In this document: in pieces, positions 5,359 to 63,151 of the stretch
Layout of the letters: every line of letters starts with the position of its first letter
Position numbering within the stretch: position 1 is the stretch's first letter
Assembly (NCBI GenBank): GCA_030609965.1
Contig: JAUWSQ010000001.1
Location: 105,787-169,786 of the forward strand
Reading direction: 5' to 3'
Source: Candidatus Fermentibacterota bacterium
GTDB lineage: Bacteria; Fermentibacterota; Fermentibacteria; Fermentibacterales; JCC-6
Length of the DNA: 64,000 bases
Made by a program: the position numbers and the translations under genes
The notes under the pieces: model-generated
What the model saw: only the letters and a program-made list of their open reading frames with translations
Told to the model about the DNA's origin: nothing
Databases searched by the model: none

Positions 5359-6069
5359 ATGACATCTTCAAGTATGGTTTCCGCACTTCTATTGATCATG
5401 GCATTTCATTGTAGCTGTGGCGAAGCCTCTGGTACGGATACAGCTGATGAACAGCTGACTGAACATGAGATTACGCGGACTGCCAGTCCGGGGTTGACGC
5501 AGTGCACGCTTTCGGTCCACAGTGATCCCGAGCTATTCGAGATATCCCTCTACTGGGTTGGTCCTCCAGACGCGGCTCCGGGCTTCCGACTGGCTCACAC
5601 CCTGACGGTAGCTCCCCTTGGAGGGGACAGCATGGTCGTATTCGATGGACTGGAATCGACCTACTATGAAAACAGTGAGCTTAAGGGTTACCTTATCGGG
5701 GAGGATATGAACTTCGACGGATATACCGATTTCCGTCTGATGCAATTCCCGACTGCAGGCCCGAATACTTACTGGTATTTCTGGCTGTTCGATCCTGATA
5801 CCGGGACGTTCTTCCGCTCGATGGAATACGAGGAGAGCAGCCTTGTTTCACCAGAATTTGATCAGGACAATGAGACGATCAAAAGTTTCCATCGTGATGG
5901 AATGGGGATATACGGAACAGAATACTACTTTGTTGAGAACGGTCACCTGCTTCTTATTAGAAGTGAGCAGACAGAATTCCAGGGTCCGGATTCATTGATA
6001 ACAACAGTAAGAGAACTGATCAATGATGAAATGGTTGTAACTGAACGGAATGTTCAGAATATGGATTAA
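5359..6069 (+). CDS. Secreted XAC2610-like protein
   Basis: Signal peptide; EDMNFDGYTDF (EF-hand-like Ca motif) followed by GPNTYWYFWLFDPDTGTF. Confidence 0.65.
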   Translation: MTSSSMVSALLLIMAFHCSCGEASGTDTADEQLTEHEITRTASPGLTQCTLSVHSDPELFEISLYWVGPPDAAPGFRLAHTLTVAPLGGDSMVVFDGLESTYYENSELKGYLIGEDMNFDGYTDFRLMQFPTAGPNTYWYFWLFDPDTGTFFRSMEYEESSLVSPEFDQDNETIKSFHRDGMGIYGTEYYFVENGHLLLIRSEQTEFQGPDSLITTVRELINDEMVVTERNVQNMD

Positions 6070-6095
6070 ACACTTCACCCATCTTGGGAGGGATT

Positions 6096-6431
6096 ATGCT
6101 TGACAGGCTGAGAGAAAAGATCATCGAATTCCGTGACCTTCGTGACTGGAAGCAGTTTCACGATCCGAAGAACCTCGCGGAGGCTATATCTATTGAATCC
6201 GCAGAACTGCTCGAGAATTTCCTGTGGAAAACCTGCGATGAAGCCAAGAATCTTGATAGTGAATCCATCAATTCGATCGGCGAAGAGATAGCCGATATAG
6301 CTATATTCCTGACTATTCTCGCCCATGAACTGCACCTGGATATAGAGCAGATCGTCAATAGAAAACTGCAGCTCAACGAAAAGAGATATCCCGTTGAAAC
6401 TTCAAGGGGCAATGCTAAGAAGCATCCCTGA
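6096..6431 (+). CDS. MazG-like nucleotide pyrophosphohydrolase (dCTPase type)
   Basis: RDWKQFHDPKNLAEAISIESAELLE and EEIADIAIFL; RBS GGGAGG before ATG 6096. Confidence 0.9.
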   Translation: MLDRLREKIIEFRDLRDWKQFHDPKNLAEAISIESAELLENFLWKTCDEAKNLDSESINSIGEEIADIAIFLTILAHELHLDIEQIVNRKLQLNEKRYPVETSRGNAKKHP

Positions 6432-6451
6432 GGTTACGGAAATAGACTGCA

Positions 6452-6862
6452 TTAGACTGTAACCTGCCACTCCTCGTCGCCGATCTGGCTAAGACCTATG
6501 CCGTTGCTCAGGAGAGAATCTCTGAACCATTCAAGGGATTTTTCGAACCCGCTTAGCAGCACAACTGAGCCATCTATGGCTTTCAGTTCAAGCAGCTTTT
6601 TGTTCTTGGCATATTTACCTCTGCTTGCCTTAAGTCCCTCCAGGGGAAAGCTTACAGGATTACCTTTAACCAGCAACATGATCAGAATGCCCAGCTGCAT
6701 ATGAAAAGGAGCCATCTTGCCAAGATCGAAGTAGACGAATCTCCGATCTGTCAGAATGCATCGCGAATAAACAGGGAATTTTATCTTTTTCCCCTGCAGT
6801 GTAGATCTTTTATTATCGACAAGTACGCTTTCTCCTGGATTCAGTTCGAACTTTTTCCCCAT
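6452..6862 (-). CDS. Hypothetical protein (possible PH-like fold)
   Basis: 136-aa ORF containing CILTDRRFVY; no firm family. Confidence 0.6.
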   Translation of the reverse strand: MGKKFELNPGESVLVDNKRSTLQGKKIKFPVYSRCILTDRRFVYFDLGKMAPFHMQLGILIMLLVKGNPVSFPLEGLKASRGKYAKNKKLLELKAIDGSVVLLSGFEKSLEWFRDSLLSNGIGLSQIGDEEWQVTV

Positions 6863-7077
6863 TTCATTCCCTTTTCTGTAAAACCTCTTCGCAGACTCAT
6901 TACCAGTTGCCGGCAGGACGATATATCTTACAGTATGATTCTGTCAATACCACGATAATCCGGATTCCCCTGCAGAACTGCAATCCGCAGCAGCTGTGGT
7001 GAAAAGCGAAACTACTCCCCTTTCGCGCGAAATTGATTATTGTACCTTTTCATGGTTCAGAAACAGGAGAGTATTAA

Positions 7078-8385
7078 GTGGAAACAACATCTGACATTGT
7101 TCCCGACCTTAAGAAGGAAAACGCTCAGCTGCAACATCAGCTTAACAGCCTTGAGCTTGTATTCCGGAACGCGGTTGATATTCTGGTGGTTGTCGATGCG
7201 GCTTCAGGAACAATACAAAGGATAAGCGATGCCGTTGAAGCTGTGCTTGGTTACAAACGCTCGAACCTGATCGGCAAAAAACTGACAGAGATCCTCCCTG
7301 ATGATAAAACATCCAATCTGAAACTGCAGGACGGCATCCCAGAGATTGTTGACGGTGTATTTCTTGATCAGAAAGTGAAATGTCATGACGGCTCCTTCAA
7401 ATCAATGGATATGACCATAAGCCTCGTGAACAGTAATGATCAAAGCGTCATCCTTCTGACATTAAGGGACACCTCCCAGAGAAAACGCCACCAGGGTGAC
7501 ATGATCAAGAAGAACAGCGCACTGGACAGTGCGCTCAGTGCCATGATAATAACCAACAGTTCCTGGAAGATAGACTATGCAAATGTAGAGGCTCTGAATT
7601 ACTGGAGGTACAGCAGAACGGATATGCTGAATCTGGACATCTCGGACCTTCTTCCATACATGGGTGACTTTGACAGCCTTATGGAGTGTATGGAAGAAAG
7701 AGGTCAATGGGATGACGAAATAGAATGTCAGCGCAGGGACAGCACAACTTTCATTGCACATGCCACTGCTATTAGAGTGGATACTGATGGCGAAGAACAA
7801 TGTTATATTTTTTCATTTCTCGATATCACCAAGCGCGTCCGTCTTGAGAAAAGGCTTACGGAACTGTCTCTGCGCGACAGCCTTACAGGTCTTTATAATA
7901 GACGGGGGTTCATGACGCTGGGCAAACAGTTGCTTGATTCTTCCCTTCGGAAACAACCGGAGATCGGTCTGCTTTACGTTGACCTCGATTACCTTAAACT
8001 GTTAAACGATAAGCTGGGTCACTCGGAGGGTGACAAGGCTCTTGTAATCACTGCAAGAGTATTGAAGAGCTGCTTCCGGGATTCGGACATCATAGCCAGG
8101 CTGGGCGGGGATGAATTCGTTGTACTCTTCCTTGATACTCCGGGCCTCACCGTAGAATCCATCAGGACTCGAATAGATAGACAGCTTAAAGAAACCGTTG
8201 ACACTAAGCCTACTCCCTTCAGGTTATCCCTCAGTATAGGATATTATTCTACCGTACTGTGTTATCAAACTCAAATCGGGATGCTTCTCAGCAGTGCCGA
8301 TTCTCTCATGTACGAAGACAAGGAAAAAAGAAGAAAATCTGTCACCGAGGCTGACATACTGCTAGGGAATGATCAGCAGACCTGA
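7078..8385 (+). CDS. PAS-PAS diguanylate cyclase
   Basis: Two PAS-like repeats; DSLTGLYNRRGF; RDSD I-site and GGDEF. Confidence 0.92.
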   Translation: METTSDIVPDLKKENAQLQHQLNSLELVFRNAVDILVVVDAASGTIQRISDAVEAVLGYKRSNLIGKKLTEILPDDKTSNLKLQDGIPEIVDGVFLDQKVKCHDGSFKSMDMTISLVNSNDQSVILLTLRDTSQRKRHQGDMIKKNSALDSALSAMIITNSSWKIDYANVEALNYWRYSRTDMLNLDISDLLPYMGDFDSLMECMEERGQWDDEIECQRRDSTTFIAHATAIRVDTDGEEQCYIFSFLDITKRVRLEKRLTELSLRDSLTGLYNRRGFMTLGKQLLDSSLRKQPEIGLLYVDLDYLKLLNDKLGHSEGDKALVITARVLKSCFRDSDIIARLGGDEFVVLFLDTPGLTVESIRTRIDRQLKETVDTKPTPFRLSLSIGYYSTVLCYQTQIGMLLSSADSLMYEDKEKRRKSVTEADILLGNDQQT

Positions 8386-9238: not shown

Positions 9239-9463
9239 ATGGCTTCAATAGTACTCGACGCACTAGGAATGAAATGCCCCCAGCCGATACTGAAAATAGC
9301 TATAAAGGCCAAAGAACTGCAGCCTGGCGACATGCTGGAGGTTCTCGCGGACTGCCCCTCTTTCCCGGTTGACATAAAAGCCTGGTGCGAGCGAACAGGG
9401 AAGACCCTTCTGTTCTGCGCCACTGAAGGAGACGGCAAGCACAAAGCACAAGTTCAGTTCTAA
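9239..9463 (+). CDS. tusA: TusA/SirA family sulfurtransferase
   Basis: LDALGMKCPQP signature; 74 aa. Confidence 0.85.
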   Translation: MASIVLDALGMKCPQPILKIAIKAKELQPGDMLEVLADCPSFPVDIKAWCERTGKTLLFCATEGDGKHKAQVQF

Positions 9464-56117: not shown

Positions 56118-57329
56118 ATGAGCAAAACGCGCTCAGAACCAAAACTTGAGTCTGTATCCACGATTGAAAAAACTCCTCGTAAGCGTAAAAAGATATTCTC
56201 AGTAGTTTTTATGCCTACATTGGCTTGTAATTGCAGATGCTCCCATTGTTTTGAGGAATTAGCCGAGGGGAATGCGGAAGATCACAACTGGGAACTTCAC
56301 TTCACTGAGATGCGCAGGCTGGCTGAGACGCTTAAATGCAATACGCTGAAAGTGTACTGGCAAGGCGGCGAGGTCCTTTGCTTGCATCCGGATACCGTCC
56401 AGTGCGCACTTGATATTGGGGCTGCAGTTTTTAAAGATAGTGATATTACTCTTGAACATCATCTACAAACGAACTTGCTCCTCTATGAAACGTCCAGATG
56501 GAAGGAAGTAATCTCCAATTTTTTCCTCGGCAGTATAAGCTCCTCTATTGATCTGCCGAATCTCTTCCGCCTCACGCCAACCCTGGGTGTGGATGAATAC
56601 AACCGGGCGTGGCTCAAGAAAAAAGATATGGCTGAAAGAGACGGGTTCACCGTCAGTGTAGTCAGCTTACCGAACCATAAAACCCTGGAACTTGGCGCCG
56701 AGCGCTTCTACCGATTCTTCCGGGATGAAGCACTGTTGAAAAACGTGCAGGTCAACTTCCCATTCCCTGGAAATAGCGGTTTGGAACCGCTGGATCTCAA
56801 AAAGCTGGCCGGATTTATGACCGATTTGTACAAGATATGGGTCGCATCAGGCAGAGACCTTAATCTGAGCCCGTTTAGGGCAATGGAAGACAGGCTGTTA
56901 CGAGGTAGAGGCGCGCTTCCCTGCTGCTGGACGTACAGCTGCGCTTCCATCCTTCTGTCGATCGGCCCGAACGGTGGTGTAGGCCAGTGTGATTGCTGGG
57001 TAGCCACTTATAGTGATCATAACTTCGGAACGACCGATCAGCCCGTTGAGCAGCTCTTGGATTCGGATCAGCGGCAGCCGTTTTTGAACAGACCCCTCAA
57101 ACTGATGCGGGATACCAAGTGTGGTGAGTGCAAGTTCTGGGGAATTTGTTTTGGTGGTTGTCCGATTCGCGCGTTTGCATTCACAGGCAACCTGATGGAT
57201 GTCGATCACTATTGCCCAGTTTATTATGAAATGTTCTCAATCATTCTGGATCAAGCAGAGCATGAAAGCCAGTTAGAGTATGAATTCAGTGAGGAGGTAG
57301 AATTCAGTTCGTCGGAGAAAGGTGGGTAG
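56118..57329 (+). CDS. Radical SAM/SPASM peptide maturase (anSME-like)
   Basis: PTLACNCRCSHC, WQGGEV, LQTNLL; SPASM CCWTYSC..GQC..CGECKFWGICFGGCP..YC. ATG 56118 preferred over 55896. Confidence 0.9.
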   Translation: MSKTRSEPKLESVSTIEKTPRKRKKIFSVVFMPTLACNCRCSHCFEELAEGNAEDHNWELHFTEMRRLAETLKCNTLKVYWQGGEVLCLHPDTVQCALDIGAAVFKDSDITLEHHLQTNLLLYETSRWKEVISNFFLGSISSSIDLPNLFRLTPTLGVDEYNRAWLKKKDMAERDGFTVSVVSLPNHKTLELGAERFYRFFRDEALLKNVQVNFPFPGNSGLEPLDLKKLAGFMTDLYKIWVASGRDLNLSPFRAMEDRLLRGRGALPCCWTYSCASILLSIGPNGGVGQCDCWVATYSDHNFGTTDQPVEQLLDSDQRQPFLNRPLKLMRDTKCGECKFWGICFGGCPIRAFAFTGNLMDVDHYCPVYYEMFSIILDQAEHESQLEYEFSEEVEFSSSEKGG

Positions 57330-57361: not shown

Positions 57362-57802
57362 ATGACTCTGGAAAAGCAACCAGATGGAAGAAAAGAGAAG
57401 AAGAAAACAAAGAAAGAAGACGACAGCATTGACAGACGCGAAGCGCTGAAGAGAATTGGCCGGTACTCGGCCATCGTGGCCGCCGCGCTTACAACCGGCA
57501 TTCTCAAGACAGGCTGCGGGAGCAATCCTACCGCCCCATGGTCGGATGCGTACAGCGACTGGAACAACACCTACAGCGACTGGAATGACGGTTACAGCGA
57601 CTGGAATGACGGTTATAGCGACTGGAATGACGGTTATAGCGACTGGAGCAACGCCTGGTCCGACTATAGCGACTGGAGCAACACCTGGTCCGACTATAGC
57701 GACTGGAGCAACACCTGGTCCGACTATAGCGACTGGAGCAACTGGTCTGACTCTTATAGTGATTGGAATAATTTCTGGGGAAATTGGATGCAGTCGTGGT
57801 AG
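57362..57802 (+). CDS. Putative precursor peptide/lipoprotein with Trp/Tyr-Ser-Asp repeat core
   Basis: RBS GGAGG; DRREALK + hydrophobic stretch + KTGC; residues 60-146 contain 17 W, 9 Y, 1 F. Confidence 0.85.
   Translation: MTLEKQPDGRKEKKKTKKEDDSIDRREALKRIGRYSAIVAAALTTGILKTGCGSNPTAPWSDAYSDWNNTYSDWNDGYSDWNDGYSDWNDGYSDWSNAWSDYSDWSNTWSDYSDWSNTWSDYSDWSNWSDSYSDWNNFWGNWMQSW
57551..57772 (+). repeat. Coding tandem repeats: 4 x 21 nt, then 3 x 30 nt plus shortened copies
   Basis: TAYAGCGACTGGAA(TGACGGT/CAACACC) x4 (57551-634); TATAGCGACTGGAGCAAC(G/A)CCTGGTCCGAC x3 (57635-724); a 27-nt copy and a diverged copy follow. Confidence 0.95.
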
Positions 57803-59818: not shown

Positions 59819-59971
59819 TGACAATGAATACGGTTTGCATATTAGCTTCCTGAATTCATTCGAGAATTACTGAGTATTTTGCACCTGGGCGAGCCGACTA
59901 CGGGTGCAAATTTCGAAGAGTATCTTGCGAGATACAGGAAAGCTCTTTCCGGAATCGTGTTCAAAACGTAA
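59818..59971 (+). pseudogene. Collapsed remnant of a paralog of the first rSAM domain of the downstream gene
   Basis: MTMNTVCILAS* versus MKVNSVHVLIS; LGEPTTGANFEEYLA versus MGEPTLDPDFEEYLA; exact 19-nt match 59944-62 = 60943-61. Confidence 0.7.
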
Positions 59972-59989
59972 GCGCAGCTTTTAAACCTC

Positions 59990-60018
59990 TTGCCCGGGTT
60001 TTAAAAGAAAAATTATAA
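59990..60018 (+). promoter_or_regulatory. Internal sigma70 promoter
   Basis: TTGCCC-N17-TATAAT. Confidence 0.65.
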
Positions 60019-60182
60019 TACTACGCGTGATTTGAAATATTTAGGGGAAGGTAAACGGTTTTCTCGGTGTTCTCAACGATACGGAACACCGGGAGGAGGT
60101 ACTGGCGGTATCATCCTAACACATTCGGCAAACCCAACCCGAAGGGGAGGGGCATGCCGATATCAATTATTGAAGTGAAATA

Positions 60183-62261
60183 ATGAAAGTAAACAGTGTA
60201 CATGTATTAATCTCTAAATCCTGCCCAAACAACTGTATATTCTGTACTGTTGCTGGCCGGAGGAGAAGACAGATTTTCCCGGAAAAGAAAGAGATCATCC
60301 GCTTCATGAGGGATTCTGCGGCGGCGGGGACCCGGAGTCTGGTTTTCTCCGGCATGGGGGAGCCCACTCTAGATCCTGATTTCGAAGAATACCTTGCATT
60401 AGCAGAGGAATTGGGATTTGACAGCATCAGCCTTTTTACGAATGGTTATGGCCTTAAGGCAGAAGACGTCCGCCGCTGGAAAGATTATGGCCTTTCATCA
60501 GTCTTAATTTCCATGCATGGAATGGAAGACGGCCACGATCGCAATGTTCAGCGAAAGGGGTCTTTCAGGGAGGCTGTTTCCGCTATACGGCTATATTCAG
60601 AGTATGATATCTTGGTTACCGTCAACACATGCCTGACCCGGCTTAACCTTCCCGAGATACCGAGGCTGTGCGAATTCCTTGCTGGCTTTCGGGTGATAAC
60701 ACACACGCTCACATTCCCTGAGTGGTCAGGTAACGTGCCACTCTACGAAGAAAATATTCTCGATTACCACGAAGTCAGTGAAGTAGCGGGTGATCTGATC
60801 CCTGAAGGGAATATGATAGCAATGTTCGAGGATATGCCATATTGCCTGGTTCGTAATAAAACTCGCGAGATGCAGAATCGGGGAATTGTCGGGCTGCTCG
60901 ATGGTACCGGAGAGCATGAATTTGACGGGAACGCAAGGAAGATCTTTCCGGAATCGTGTTCGGGTCGCGGGTGCGTATTCCAAACCGTTTGTTCAGGTTT
61001 TGAGAGGAACTACATCAAAGCCCGGGGTTGGCAGGATCTCAAGGAAAGGGTTGGTCGGTTTCTTGATCTTCTCAATGATCCTGAGCACGGGGATACAATA
61101 TTAGCAGAATTACCCGATCACCCTCGTACGCGCAGATCCCCGAAAGGAAGCCGACGCAGGTCCGACCGTGGACCTCATAACAGCCAGGTCGTGATCGTTA
61201 AACCAACCAGCCGGTGTAACGCAGGTTGCCGATATTGCTCAAGCTATAAAGAATCGCAACCACCCGATATGTCGCCTGACTTCCTCGACAAGATGTATGC
61301 GGAGCTGTTCGAATATGCAGCGCTCCAGGGCAAAAAATACATTACATTCTTGTGGCATGGGGGAGAACCATTACTCATGGGCAAATCCTTCTATGACCGC
61401 GCATGGGGTCTGACAACCACCGTTAAAGATCTGAGAATCACACATATCCTCCAGAGCAACATGCTGCTTCTGGATAATGATTGGGTGGAGCTGCTCAGCC
61501 GGTACAATGTACACATCAGCAGTTCTGTTGACCCGATTGGTCAAGACCGTATTCTCAAGGATGGTCGTCAGCAATATCCCGACTGGCTTGACAAGTTCAT
61601 CCTGGCTGCTTCCGGCGGCCTGCACTTAGGATTAGTGTTTACGGTCACCCCGAGCCATATTGATAGGTATGCTGACGTTTATCATTTCTTTAAGAACCTG
61701 CAAACCCTGTCAGCAAGACCCCTGGGCGTTCGCTTGAATCCGGTCTACCCGGCCGGGGCCGCTAAAGGGCTGGACCCTGGGGAGTTGATCGACCCAGCCG
61801 ATTACGGTGAATTTCTTTGCCGGCTATGGGATCTCTGGTGTAATGATGGGAAATCTTTCCCGCTCTCACCGTTTACAGATTGGAGTGAGGGGAAAGGAAC
61901 AACATGTGAATTCTCCGGACGATGCCAGGATAATTTCATAGAGGTTAGCGGCAATGGTGATATTCACCACTGCGGAAGGTTTACAGACGCAGGTTTGGTG
62001 CTGGGGAACATTACTAACGCCAAGCTTGTGGATATACTGAAACACCCTCAGATGAAAGAAATTCGTCGGCGTTCAGAGCTGCTGAAAGATGGATCGTGTA
62101 AAGGATGCCCTTTCTGGGAACTTTGCATGGGTGGCTGCCCTTGTCACGCTTATACTACATTCGGAGAAATAACGCGCGAAACCCCCTACTGCCCCGCCTA
62201 CAAAATGTTCTTTGCTTCGAGCGGCCTGGGCAGTGTTGAAGATAAGCTGGAGGTTAATTGA
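60183..62261 (+). CDS. Tandem radical SAM fusion: rSAM (HxsC-like) + rSAM/SPASM
   Basis: CPNNCIFC..SGMGEPT..CSGRGCVFQTVC; linker; KPTSRCNAGCRYC..WHGGEP..LQSN..CEFSGRC..HHC..CKGCPFWELCMGGCP..YC. Confidence 0.88.
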   Translation: MKVNSVHVLISKSCPNNCIFCTVAGRRRRQIFPEKKEIIRFMRDSAAAGTRSLVFSGMGEPTLDPDFEEYLALAEELGFDSISLFTNGYGLKAEDVRRWKDYGLSSVLISMHGMEDGHDRNVQRKGSFREAVSAIRLYSEYDILVTVNTCLTRLNLPEIPRLCEFLAGFRVITHTLTFPEWSGNVPLYEENILDYHEVSEVAGDLIPEGNMIAMFEDMPYCLVRNKTREMQNRGIVGLLDGTGEHEFDGNARKIFPESCSGRGCVFQTVCSGFERNYIKARGWQDLKERVGRFLDLLNDPEHGDTILAELPDHPRTRRSPKGSRRRSDRGPHNSQVVIVKPTSRCNAGCRYCSSYKESQPPDMSPDFLDKMYAELFEYAALQGKKYITFLWHGGEPLLMGKSFYDRAWGLTTTVKDLRITHILQSNMLLLDNDWVELLSRYNVHISSSVDPIGQDRILKDGRQQYPDWLDKFILAASGGLHLGLVFTVTPSHIDRYADVYHFFKNLQTLSARPLGVRLNPVYPAGAAKGLDPGELIDPADYGEFLCRLWDLWCNDGKSFPLSPFTDWSEGKGTTCEFSGRCQDNFIEVSGNGDIHHCGRFTDAGLVLGNITNAKLVDILKHPQMKEIRRRSELLKDGSCKGCPFWELCMGGCPCHAYTTFGEITRETPYCPAYKMFFASSGLGSVEDKLEVN

Positions 62262-63151
62262 TGCATGTTTTCCCAAAGAATACCCTGGTGAATACTCCGT
62301 GCGAAACTATGCTGGATGGCGAATGTTCTGTTTCCGTACGAATTAGCACACCTGATTCCGTTCCTCGTATACGTGAGTTTTACGGCAAGAGACTATTCAA
62401 CCTGGAAATTGAAGGTGAGTTGATAAAAGATATTGATCTTATACGTGCAATTGATGTAAACCGTGTCCGGATCATACTAGGAGACATCAACATACTTGAG
62501 GTTGAAGGCAGGTTGATAGAAGCATTGCAGAAAATGGGGGCTCAATCCGTGTTCGAGATTAACCCGGATAAGAAGCTTTTAAGAAACATCAACTTCCTCA
62601 CAGGCCTTGATATATTAGTGCATATTGATATGACAAAACCGGTCCAGGATGAAAACGCACTGCTGCAAGCGGTCGATTTCTATCTTCACAATCCTATGTT
62701 AAGAACACCGATTGAACCCATACATAACCTGCTTGTAACGATGAACCGAAGGCGGGGGCGTACATTGTGGAGTACGGAACTGGAAAACGTGAAGACTAAC
62801 TTTTACGTTAGTGATCAAGGGGAGGTTTCTCTTTCGAGTCGGTGGATAGAGAATGACATGAAATACGGTACGTTGGATGATTCCGTTAAGGATTTCATGA
62901 AATCAGAGCTATACAATAAATTGGCAACCTTGAAAGAAGAAATGTTCCGAAGTAAGAGTTCTTGTGTTTTCTGTGGAAATCTGGATGTATGCAAAGGCTT
63001 CCTGCGCGCAATTGACTCGGAATGGCCATGTGATATCTGGAAGAAGGTCTTCAATATTCTTCAAGGTGCGGTGCGGGAAGGAAAGGATCTCCTGAGGAAA
63101 ATTGATCAACAGAAGGAACTGGCAAAATCGCCGGATGAACAGGTTACATAG
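62258..63151 (+). CDS. Accessory protein with SPASM-like C-terminal Cys cluster and no CxxxCxxC
   Basis: 4-nt overlap with the upstream gene; CVFCGNLDVCKG..WPC. Confidence 0.75.
   Translation: MMHVFPKNTLVNTPCETMLDGECSVSVRISTPDSVPRIREFYGKRLFNLEIEGELIKDIDLIRAIDVNRVRIILGDINILEVEGRLIEALQKMGAQSVFEINPDKKLLRNINFLTGLDILVHIDMTKPVQDENALLQAVDFYLHNPMLRTPIEPIHNLLVTMNRRRGRTLWSTELENVKTNFYVSDQGEVSLSSRWIENDMKYGTLDDSVKDFMKSELYNKLATLKEEMFRSKSSCVFCGNLDVCKGFLRAIDSEWPCDIWKKVFNILQGAVREGKDLLRKIDQQKELAKSPDEQVT

Follow-up and report, generated by a model that had tools for sequence, protein, structure and literature searches.

A gene for a single polypeptide with two complete radical SAM domains, in a cassette with a putative repeat-lipoprotein substrate, in a Candidatus Fermentibacterota genome

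The window examined here, a 64,000-nucleotide stretch of a Candidatus Fermentibacterota genome (GCA_030609965.1, contig JAUWSQ010000001.1), carries near its 3' end a gene for one polypeptide with two radical S-adenosylmethionine (radical SAM) domains, hereafter the didomain, whose halves are referred to as the N-domain and the C-domain. In the list of open reading frames of the window the frame runs through 692 codons without a stop, and a six-frame search of the whole genome recovered it as a single frame of 695 aa that is likewise free of internal stops. Pfam recognizes, in addition to a SPASM domain at residues 583-643 (PF13186, 29.3 bits against a cut-off of 21.5), two Radical_SAM stretches with an E of 9.6e-35. 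The initial annotation of this DNA, made from the letters alone, had described two complete radical SAM domains joined by an Arg/Ser/Pro-rich linker, and this description holds: both CxxxCxxC motifs, the GGE-type motifs and the auxiliary cysteines are present and conserved, both domains keeping all the sequence hallmarks of active radical SAM enzymes, and a basic linker, PRTRRSPKGSRRRSDRGP, is found at about residues 314-331.

A search of 5.8 billion proteins yielded about 30 full-length relatives of 666-712 aa, with identities down to 36%, whose sources are JGI, ENA, Logan and NCBI assemblies. In an alignment of 27 full-length homologues from independent assemblies (36-85% identity) residues C14, C18, C21, S56, G57, E60, P61, C150, C221, C264 and C270 are invariant, and the two glycine-rich motifs, SGMGEP (residues 56-61) and WHGGEP (residues 391-396), are invariant or nearly so. 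The cysteines of the second CxxxCxxC, C345, C349 and C352, are at least 90% conserved, and P0025 is the only one of the 27 proteins without them. Judged from this alignment, the joint conservation of both domains is far beyond chance. The source genome is a draft metagenome-assembled genome (MAG) of 81 contigs and 80.7% completeness, and related cassettes (L070 and L100) show a split arrangement, so two adjacent genes merged by an assembly or sequencing error, or a stop missed in the linker, had to be considered. Against this stand 26 further full-length proteins with both domains (666-712 aa, to 36% identity), in each of which the frame is open through the linker, and the gene calls of seven other loci (L009, L010, L012, L015, L016, L017 and L020), where the didomain is a single gene of 667-702 aa. 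Since the linker is open in so many independent assemblies an artefact is very unlikely, and we regard its probability as close to negligible. The frame truly encodes one chain, in which two complete radical SAM enzymes of different, non-homologous subtype are joined, and we hold with high confidence that it is a genuine enzyme which arose by fusion of cassette neighbours. The features of the locus are collected in Table 1.

Table 1. Features of the didomain gene and of its cassette (positions in the window)
Feature	Position	Strand	Remarks
Stand-alone radical SAM-SPASM enzyme, full-length paralogue of the C-domain	56118..57329	+	
Probable substrate, 146-aa precursor of twin-arginine translocation (Tat) lipoprotein type	57362..57802	+	about 24 (Y/W)-x-(D/N) triplets; C-terminus WGNWMQSW
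B12-binding radical SAM enzyme, 657 aa	57845..59818	+	
Remnant of the didomain gene's 5' half, decayed but collinear	59819..60182	+	matches residues 6-40, 58-72 and 253-322
Didomain radical SAM gene, 692 aa	60183..62261	+	true start ATG 60183; Met42 start of the genome's own call rejected
N-domain, residues 1-300, compact radical SAM core with twitch-like tail	60183..61082	+	NCBIfam, PDB sequence matches, AlphaFold2
First CxxxCxxC (C14-x3-C18-x2-C21), site of cluster 1	60222..60245	+	invariant in 27 of 27
Auxiliary cysteines of the N-domain, C221...C259-x4-C264-x5-C270	60843..60992	+	flank the predicted beta-hairpin 235-247
Inter-domain linker, residues 301-334, basic, Pro/Ser-rich	61083..61184	+	residues 311-330 predicted disordered
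C-domain, residues 335-685, radical SAM-SPASM of anSME / cyclophane-synthase / daropeptide-maturase type	61185..62237	+	
Second CxxxCxxC (C345-x3-C349-x2-C352), site of cluster 2	61215..61238	+	at least 90% conserved
SPASM cysteines C575, C581, C597, C639, C642, C648, C652 and C670	61905..62192	+	two auxiliary clusters expected
Accessory protein, about 297 aa, degenerate SPASM-type paralogue without CxxxCxxC	62261..63151	+	coupled to the didomain gene

The public gene call for this protein (P0001) comprises 651 aa, starts at Met42 and omits the first CxxxCxxC (window 60183-60305), whereas residues 1-41, with the invariant C14, C18 and C21, are conserved in 26 homologues. Likewise, gene calls that are too short hide the cluster motifs of two L100 genes (at 6004 and 8956), and a reading of the SPASM partners of that locus as proteins devoid of CxxxCxxC was rejected, the motifs lying just 5' of the called starts. 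Owing to such truncated starts automatic annotation under-reports radical SAM motifs in this family.

The N-domain is a radical SAM core of HxsC4/HxsC/MoaA-like, and also SkfB-like, type followed by a twitch-like tail with four cysteines and no SPASM domain. Its best NCBIfam matches are HxsC4 (NF038332, 89.5 bits versus a cut-off of 500), MoaA, NirJ, SkfB, PqqE and HxsC (TIGR03977, 53.2 versus 267.9), all far under cut-off, and among PDB sequences it matches best SkfB (6efn, E 3e-14), and also PqqE, GDGT-MAS and BlsE. In an AlphaFold2 model of the didomain, built on the family alignment and showing two well-folded domains (mean predicted local distance difference test score, pLDDT, 87.4), block means in the N-domain are 80-98, and Foldseek finds this half to resemble the structures of SkfB, viperin and MoaA. 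The tail has a conserved layout of C221, a hairpin at residues 235-247 which is seen in the model, and C259-x4-C264-x5-C270, with C259 kept in at least 90% of the aligned sequences; on these grounds it resembles a twitch domain and may bind one auxiliary cluster. No twitch model occurs among the best 25 of the 26 NCBIfam matches obtained for the N-domain with E up to 1e-8. All members of the didomain family retain the first CxxxCxxC. In the linker, residues 311-330 have pLDDT values below 50, and both its length and its sequence vary across the family, to the point that it is nearly gone in P0013.

The C-domain is a radical SAM-SPASM enzyme of the anSME/ChlB/DynA-like kind, in which seven of the SPASM cysteines are invariant and C581 is at least 90% conserved. 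It matches NCBIfam models of several maturase families, each below its cut-off: the daropeptide models DynA (NF041298, 181.4 against 450), DarE (NF038005, 85.6 against 650) and DarW (NF041300, 92.9 against 650), anSME (TIGR03942, 158.6 against 349.45), TIGR04083 (147.7), GrrM/OscB (TIGR04261, 88.1 against 310), FxsB (TIGR04269, 92.6 against 370), YhhB (NF041707, 116.1 against 445) and AmcB (NF041718, 97.4 against 425), with HxsB also among the matches. Its closest PDB sequences are anSME (4k37, E 4e-22) and ChlB (9gm3, E 1.6e-15), and the modelled fold gives the same two enzymes in Foldseek, with template modelling (TM) scores of 0.83 and 0.77, respectively, besides CteB. A second claim of the initial annotation, that this domain parallels the enzyme encoded at 56118, finds strong support, as the alignment of the two families by hhalign covers residues 331-685 with a probability of 100% and an E of 4e-47.

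The other partners of the didomain are encoded in the same cassette. The stop codon of the didomain gene overlaps the ATG of the accessory gene (TGATG), with a GGAGG at 62250-62254, seven bases upstream, and the accessory gene is translationally coupled to it. The accessory family, of about 285 aa, has no Pfam domain and no CxxxCxxC, and carries four invariant cysteines; a search of its profile against PDB sequences gave no significant match, its relationship being seen through hhalign and Foldseek only. It aligns with residues 427-686 of the C-domain (hhalign probability 86.8%, E 4e-6), and its AlphaFold2 model (pLDDT 88) finds SuiB, CteB and PqqE as best folds, with weak TM scores; these comparisons identify it as a degenerate paralogue, corresponding to the rear part of the barrel together with the SPASM region. 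The accessory gene lies directly 3' of the didomain gene in six other loci. In MAGs of Poribacteria and Deltaproteobacteria, and in L015 and L017, the didomain gene is found throughout together with genes for a protein of about 285 aa, a radical SAM-SPASM enzyme of about 370 aa and a lipoprotein of about 230 aa, in this order with some variation, and followed in part by a B12-binding radical SAM enzyme. The latter, of about 600 aa, follows in L009, L015 and L016; in L010 a gene for a 639-aa radical SAM protein lies on the opposite strand, and L017, where the radical SAM-SPASM and lipoprotein genes are upstream of the didomain gene, shows none. In the window these five genes are arranged differently (56118, 57362, 57845, 60183, 62261), and in L020, from a Rectinemataceae MAG, the didomain gene is accompanied by those for the accessory protein, the paralogue and the lipoprotein.

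The lipoprotein of about 230 aa has a signal of Tat-lipoprotein type, its C-terminal part is an array of the triplets Tyr-Ser-Asp and Trp-x-Asn/Asp, and in four of these MAG and contig loci it ends in WGNWM(Q/E)SW or WGNWTESW. A co-encoded substrate candidate of this type, built of aromatic-x-X triplets, is present in the window and in L009, L010, L015, L016, L017, L020 and L100. Two classes of motif in the substrate, which the initial annotation had put forward, do recur across phyla: what comes after Tyr is mostly Ser-Asp, and after Trp mostly x-Asn/Asp. Its further suggestion, that the two SPASM enzymes divide the work between Tyr and Trp or between Asp and Asn, is neither borne out nor contradicted by the comparison of cassettes, in which no such split is shown. 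Precursors with W-x-N triplets only (L034, L036, L043, L046 and L047) are still accompanied by two C-like enzymes, and in L021 (437-2798), a smaller relative of the system, a Tat-lipoprotein-type precursor with Y-x-D triplets only is accompanied by one C-like enzyme and an accessory-like protein. The hydrophobic core of the lipoprotein signal peptide carries a motif, G(K/R)(Y/F)SA(I/V)AA, that is kept across phyla (window 57362-57538; L009, L010, L015, L016 and L017). Conservation of this kind is uncommon in signal peptides, and the motif may double as a leader element recognized by the maturases.

Three side observations concern the precursors and the assignment of the cassette. In L034, L036, L043, L046 and L047 the W-x-N precursors are small open reading frames just 5' of paired C-like radical SAM-SPASM genes, each with a leader and 7-10 W-x-N triplets; the leader is conserved (...LREILEEIRQE...FPFWGN), and judged from their sequences, these precursors seem to form a separate triceptide-like family served by two maturases. 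L038, another smaller relative of the system, has two tandem lipoprotein-type W/Y-x-D/N precursors (375-927) about 5 kb from an accessory-N fusion (6050-7906). PADLOC returned generic viperin-like matches to the radical SAM cores and a PDC-M51A match for the B12-binding enzyme; an assignment to a defence system was set aside, neither kind of match being taken as evidence.

In order to place the fusion among its relatives, the N-half was run with HMMER over 1.84 billion cluster representatives, and the best 150 were scored with profiles for the N, C and accessory modules. The architectures were N-N in 64 representatives, N alone in 37, accessory-N in 20, three or four radical SAM domains in 14, N-C in 10, N-accessory in two, C-N in two and accessory-N-C in one. 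The N-C architecture is conserved, and chains with two radical SAM domains are common among the relatives of the N-domain, at least two CxxxCxxC motifs being present in 88 of the 150 and at least three in 15. As an observation in its own right, chains of about 600, 1000 and 1300 aa with multiple radical SAM domains form the majority among these closest relatives of the N-domain, and P0050, P0051, P0064, P0071, P0072, P0076, P0082 and others carry two to four HxsC4/HxsC-like domains each; in the three such proteins scanned no NCBIfam model reaches its cut-off.

The modules are also found side by side in other combinations. L100 encodes, in order, a C-like protein, an accessory-N fusion, a stand-alone paralogue, a Tat-lipoprotein with YSD/WSN repeats and another radical SAM protein, and L070, from a Myxococcales MAG, a precursor, a C-like protein, an accessory-N protein and a stand-alone paralogue; the substrate type, a repeat lipoprotein, is common to both loci. 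The N-type domain of L070 (8958-9813) is split by a frameshift near 9420-9433, which is either a sequencing error or the mark of a pseudogene. P0044 is a real stand-alone relative of the N-domain, outside any cassette. P0039, which might have passed for a stand-alone N-domain proving the split form, was rejected as a probable chimeric truncation, since the end of its 1.5-kb contig (L018:1431-1559) carries a suspected artefact, RVGKECRSRWSPYH, which we take to be a widespread chimeric or repeat sequence. The N-C fusion is one of several pairwise joinings of neighbouring N, C and accessory modules in different lineages. Because the modules occur unfused, or fused in varied combinations, a multi-enzyme complex is favoured over a chemistry created by the fusion itself; such variety is a classic signature of proteins that act together, most simply and, as far as gene arrangement can tell, likely in a physical complex. 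A working complex of both halves and the accessory protein would, on these arrangements, be somewhat better than an even bet.

Within the phylum of the window the gene is confined to its own genome, being absent from the other 69 of the 70 genomes searched, and in species-representative genomes just two of the 80 best loci have it in full length. Given this absence and the small number of full-length loci, the N-C architecture is a conserved but rare family, scattered in patches over several phyla. Vertical inheritance was rejected, as none of the 69 other genomes of the phylum holds the gene, and the patchy cassette has probably moved horizontally. The 364-base gap between the stop of the B12-binding enzyme and the start of the didomain gene is itself a remnant of the latter (43% identity, four stops; tblastn E 1e-12; pieces of 74-96% nucleotide identity). 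As it extends into the linker, its source is a partial duplicate made after the fusion and not an older stand-alone N gene. A promoter-like TTGCCC-18-TATAAT lies within it, at 59990-60019.

Based on these observations we hypothesize that adjacent maturase genes were fused to give the didomain, and that the fusion would fix a one-to-one stoichiometry of its halves in a multi-subunit complex of N-domain, C-domain, accessory protein and stand-alone paralogue. Each domain would bind its own pair of [4Fe-4S] cluster and SAM and make its own 5'-deoxyadenosyl radical, a didomain chain holding about five Fe-S clusters, and both would act in the cytoplasm on the lipoprotein before its export. The C-domain and the paralogue may abstract the C-beta hydrogen of the Asp or Asn at position 3 of a triplet and join this carbon to the ring of the Trp or Tyr at position 1, the product being three-residue cyclophanes as in triceptides. 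Such a cyclophane is a C(sp2)-C(sp3) cross-link and lowers the mass by 2 Da per triplet. This role is proposed for the C-domain because it groups by family and fold with cyclophane synthases, because the candidate substrate consists of aromatic-x-polar triplets and because its stand-alone relatives lie beside (W-x-N)n or (Y-x-D)n precursors; on such comparative grounds the chances that it forms three-residue cyclophanes are about even. The N-domain would perform a different radical step on the same lipoprotein. The initial annotation had suggested that the first domain adds another chemistry, which is reasonable because the N-domain is a different type of radical SAM enzyme from the C-domain. 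Taken as a whole, a natural fusion that belongs to a maturase complex, with a cyclophane-type C-domain and a distinct step for the N-domain, is in our view the likely explanation.

The substrate might nevertheless be sought elsewhere. The matches of the N-domain include MoaA, viperin, BlsE and NirJ/AhbD, all of them enzymes acting on small molecules, and a known chain with two radical SAM domains, FbiC, exists; the two domains could thus perform two radical steps in the synthesis of a cofactor or another small molecule, the lipoprotein not being their substrate. We consider this quite unlikely, as at least nine cassettes from different phyla carry the repeat lipoprotein together with the modules, fused or not, the relatives of the C-domain are maturases of peptides and proteins, and no genes of a small-molecule pathway are conserved around the didomain in the loci compared.

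Several points weigh against a maturase in which both halves are catalytic and the C-domain cross-links. With a predicted TM score of only 0.54, the didomain model does not predict how the two domains are placed towards each other and holds no information on contact between them. The closest solved structure to the C-domain is that of anSME, an oxidising and not a cross-linking enzyme. All curated family models are far under cut-off for both domains, and the proposed chemistry is for this reason extrapolated. Furthermore, the second CxxxCxxC is gone in P0025, P0033, P0034, P0040, P0042 and P0043, and P0025 also carries GGG where GGE is expected, which indicates that the radical chemistry of the C-domain is dispensable in some lineages. 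One half, most likely the C-domain, might then mainly bind the substrate or relay electrons, as TrnD does, leaving the essential chemistry to the half whose motif is never lost. The cassette already holds one full and one fully degenerate paralogue of the C-domain, so that there is a documented trend here for SPASM paralogues to decay into partners without catalysis, and in the TrnC/TrnD pair the only strictly essential radical SAM activity is that of TrnC (PMC12093266). However, the didomain of the window and 25 of the 26 aligned homologues keep the second motif, WHGGEP and the SPASM cysteines, and a non-catalytic half seems to us unlikely, if less so than a small-molecule synthase. We may also speculate beyond the two-enzyme maturase that we prefer: the N-C chain, its pseudo-SPASM partner and the paralogue could form an obligate machine with multiple active sites and at least about nine Fe-S clusters, stapling about 24 triplets processively before Tat export. 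Its HxsC-like N-module would install a new modification, to be compared with the unexplained +8 Da of HxsB/HxsC, and the product would be a protein anchored at the surface or in the periplasm (for example an HxsA-like barrier to phage entry, or a metal-binding or structural layer) and not a diffusible peptide, the N-N and N-N-N chains being unrecognised radical assembly lines. This extended picture is doubtful, the full set of its parts being rather improbable.

Radical SAM maturases of peptides and proteins are usually studied as single enzymes. The shuffled fusions provide evidence of the Rosetta-stone type that several radical SAM enzymes and a dead paralogue may form one complex on one substrate, and they indicate which proteins to co-express. 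Single maturases of this class often fail alone, TrnC and TrnD working only as a complex and HxsB, HxsC and HxsD not having been reconstituted in vitro. The fused form is a one-gene handle on an undescribed pathway that may decorate a lipoprotein with dozens of cyclophane staples. Metagenomes commonly contain proteins with two, three or four radical SAM domains, yet in the literature searched none was described apart from FbiC; for maturases with two radical SAM domains the search returned only FbiC and pairs of separate enzymes.

Among known systems FbiC is the closest in architecture. It joins CofG and CofH in one chain and generates two separate 5'-deoxyadenosyl radicals, cofG and cofH being separate genes in archaea (PMC11917521). 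The didomain is likewise a single chain with two complete radical SAM domains, each expected to make its own radical, whose halves occur separately elsewhere; unlike it, FbiC acts on tyrosine and a pyrimidine and has no SPASM domain, whereas the didomain sits in a protein-maturation cassette. No model for CofG, CofH or FbiC is found among the best 25 NCBIfam matches of the whole didomain or of its N half. The TrnC-TrnD pair of thuricin CD is a tight obligate complex acting on shared substrates, with one dispensable radical activity (PMC12093266), much as some members of the didomain family have lost their second CxxxCxxC. TrnC and TrnD differ in being separate proteins, both of sactisynthase type, with thioether chemistry on short peptides.

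The triceptide enzymes (XyeB, GrrM/OscB, FxsB, YhhB, AmcB and ChlB) and the daropeptide enzymes DarE and DynA share the radical SAM-SPASM fold and are the best family-level matches of the C-domain; the substrate neighbouring the didomain is built from aromatic-x-polar triplets, and ChlB is the second-closest solved structure to the C-domain. The title of reference 52 of PMC12912966 calls ChlB a radical SAM multiple cyclophane synthase, and the title of reference 51 has it fused to an alpha-ketoglutarate-HExxH domain, and not to another radical SAM domain. The C-domain differs from these enzymes in falling under all curated cut-offs and in carrying a second radical SAM domain on the same chain, and its putative substrate, instead of being a short leader-core peptide, is a lipoprotein of 146-420 residues that holds at most about 24 triplets.

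The HXS system offers a further parallel, in that HxsB, a SPASM enzyme, and HxsC are always encoded adjacently, are both needed and, together with HxsD, mature the exported HxS-repeat protein HxsA (PMC13128918). There, too, a SPASM enzyme and a compact HxsC-type radical SAM enzyme form a pair on an exported short-repeat protein, which is modified in the cytoplasm and then reaches the periplasm (PMC13128918), and the best curated matches of the N-domain are HxsC4 and HxsC, with HxsB among those of the C-domain. In contrast to the HXS system, the didomain has its enzymes fused, scores far under the Hxs cut-offs, stands beside repeats of Trp/Tyr-x-Asp/Asn instead of His-x-Ser, and belongs to a cassette with extra paralogues and a B12-binding radical SAM enzyme; no match to HxsD (TIGR03976) was obtained in the five neighbouring genes scanned. 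Compared in this way, the didomain looks like a fused pair of HxsC-like and SPASM-type enzymes on a different repeat and with different partners, under every curated threshold. The didomain family is real, conserved and undescribed, yet it is built on familiar principles.

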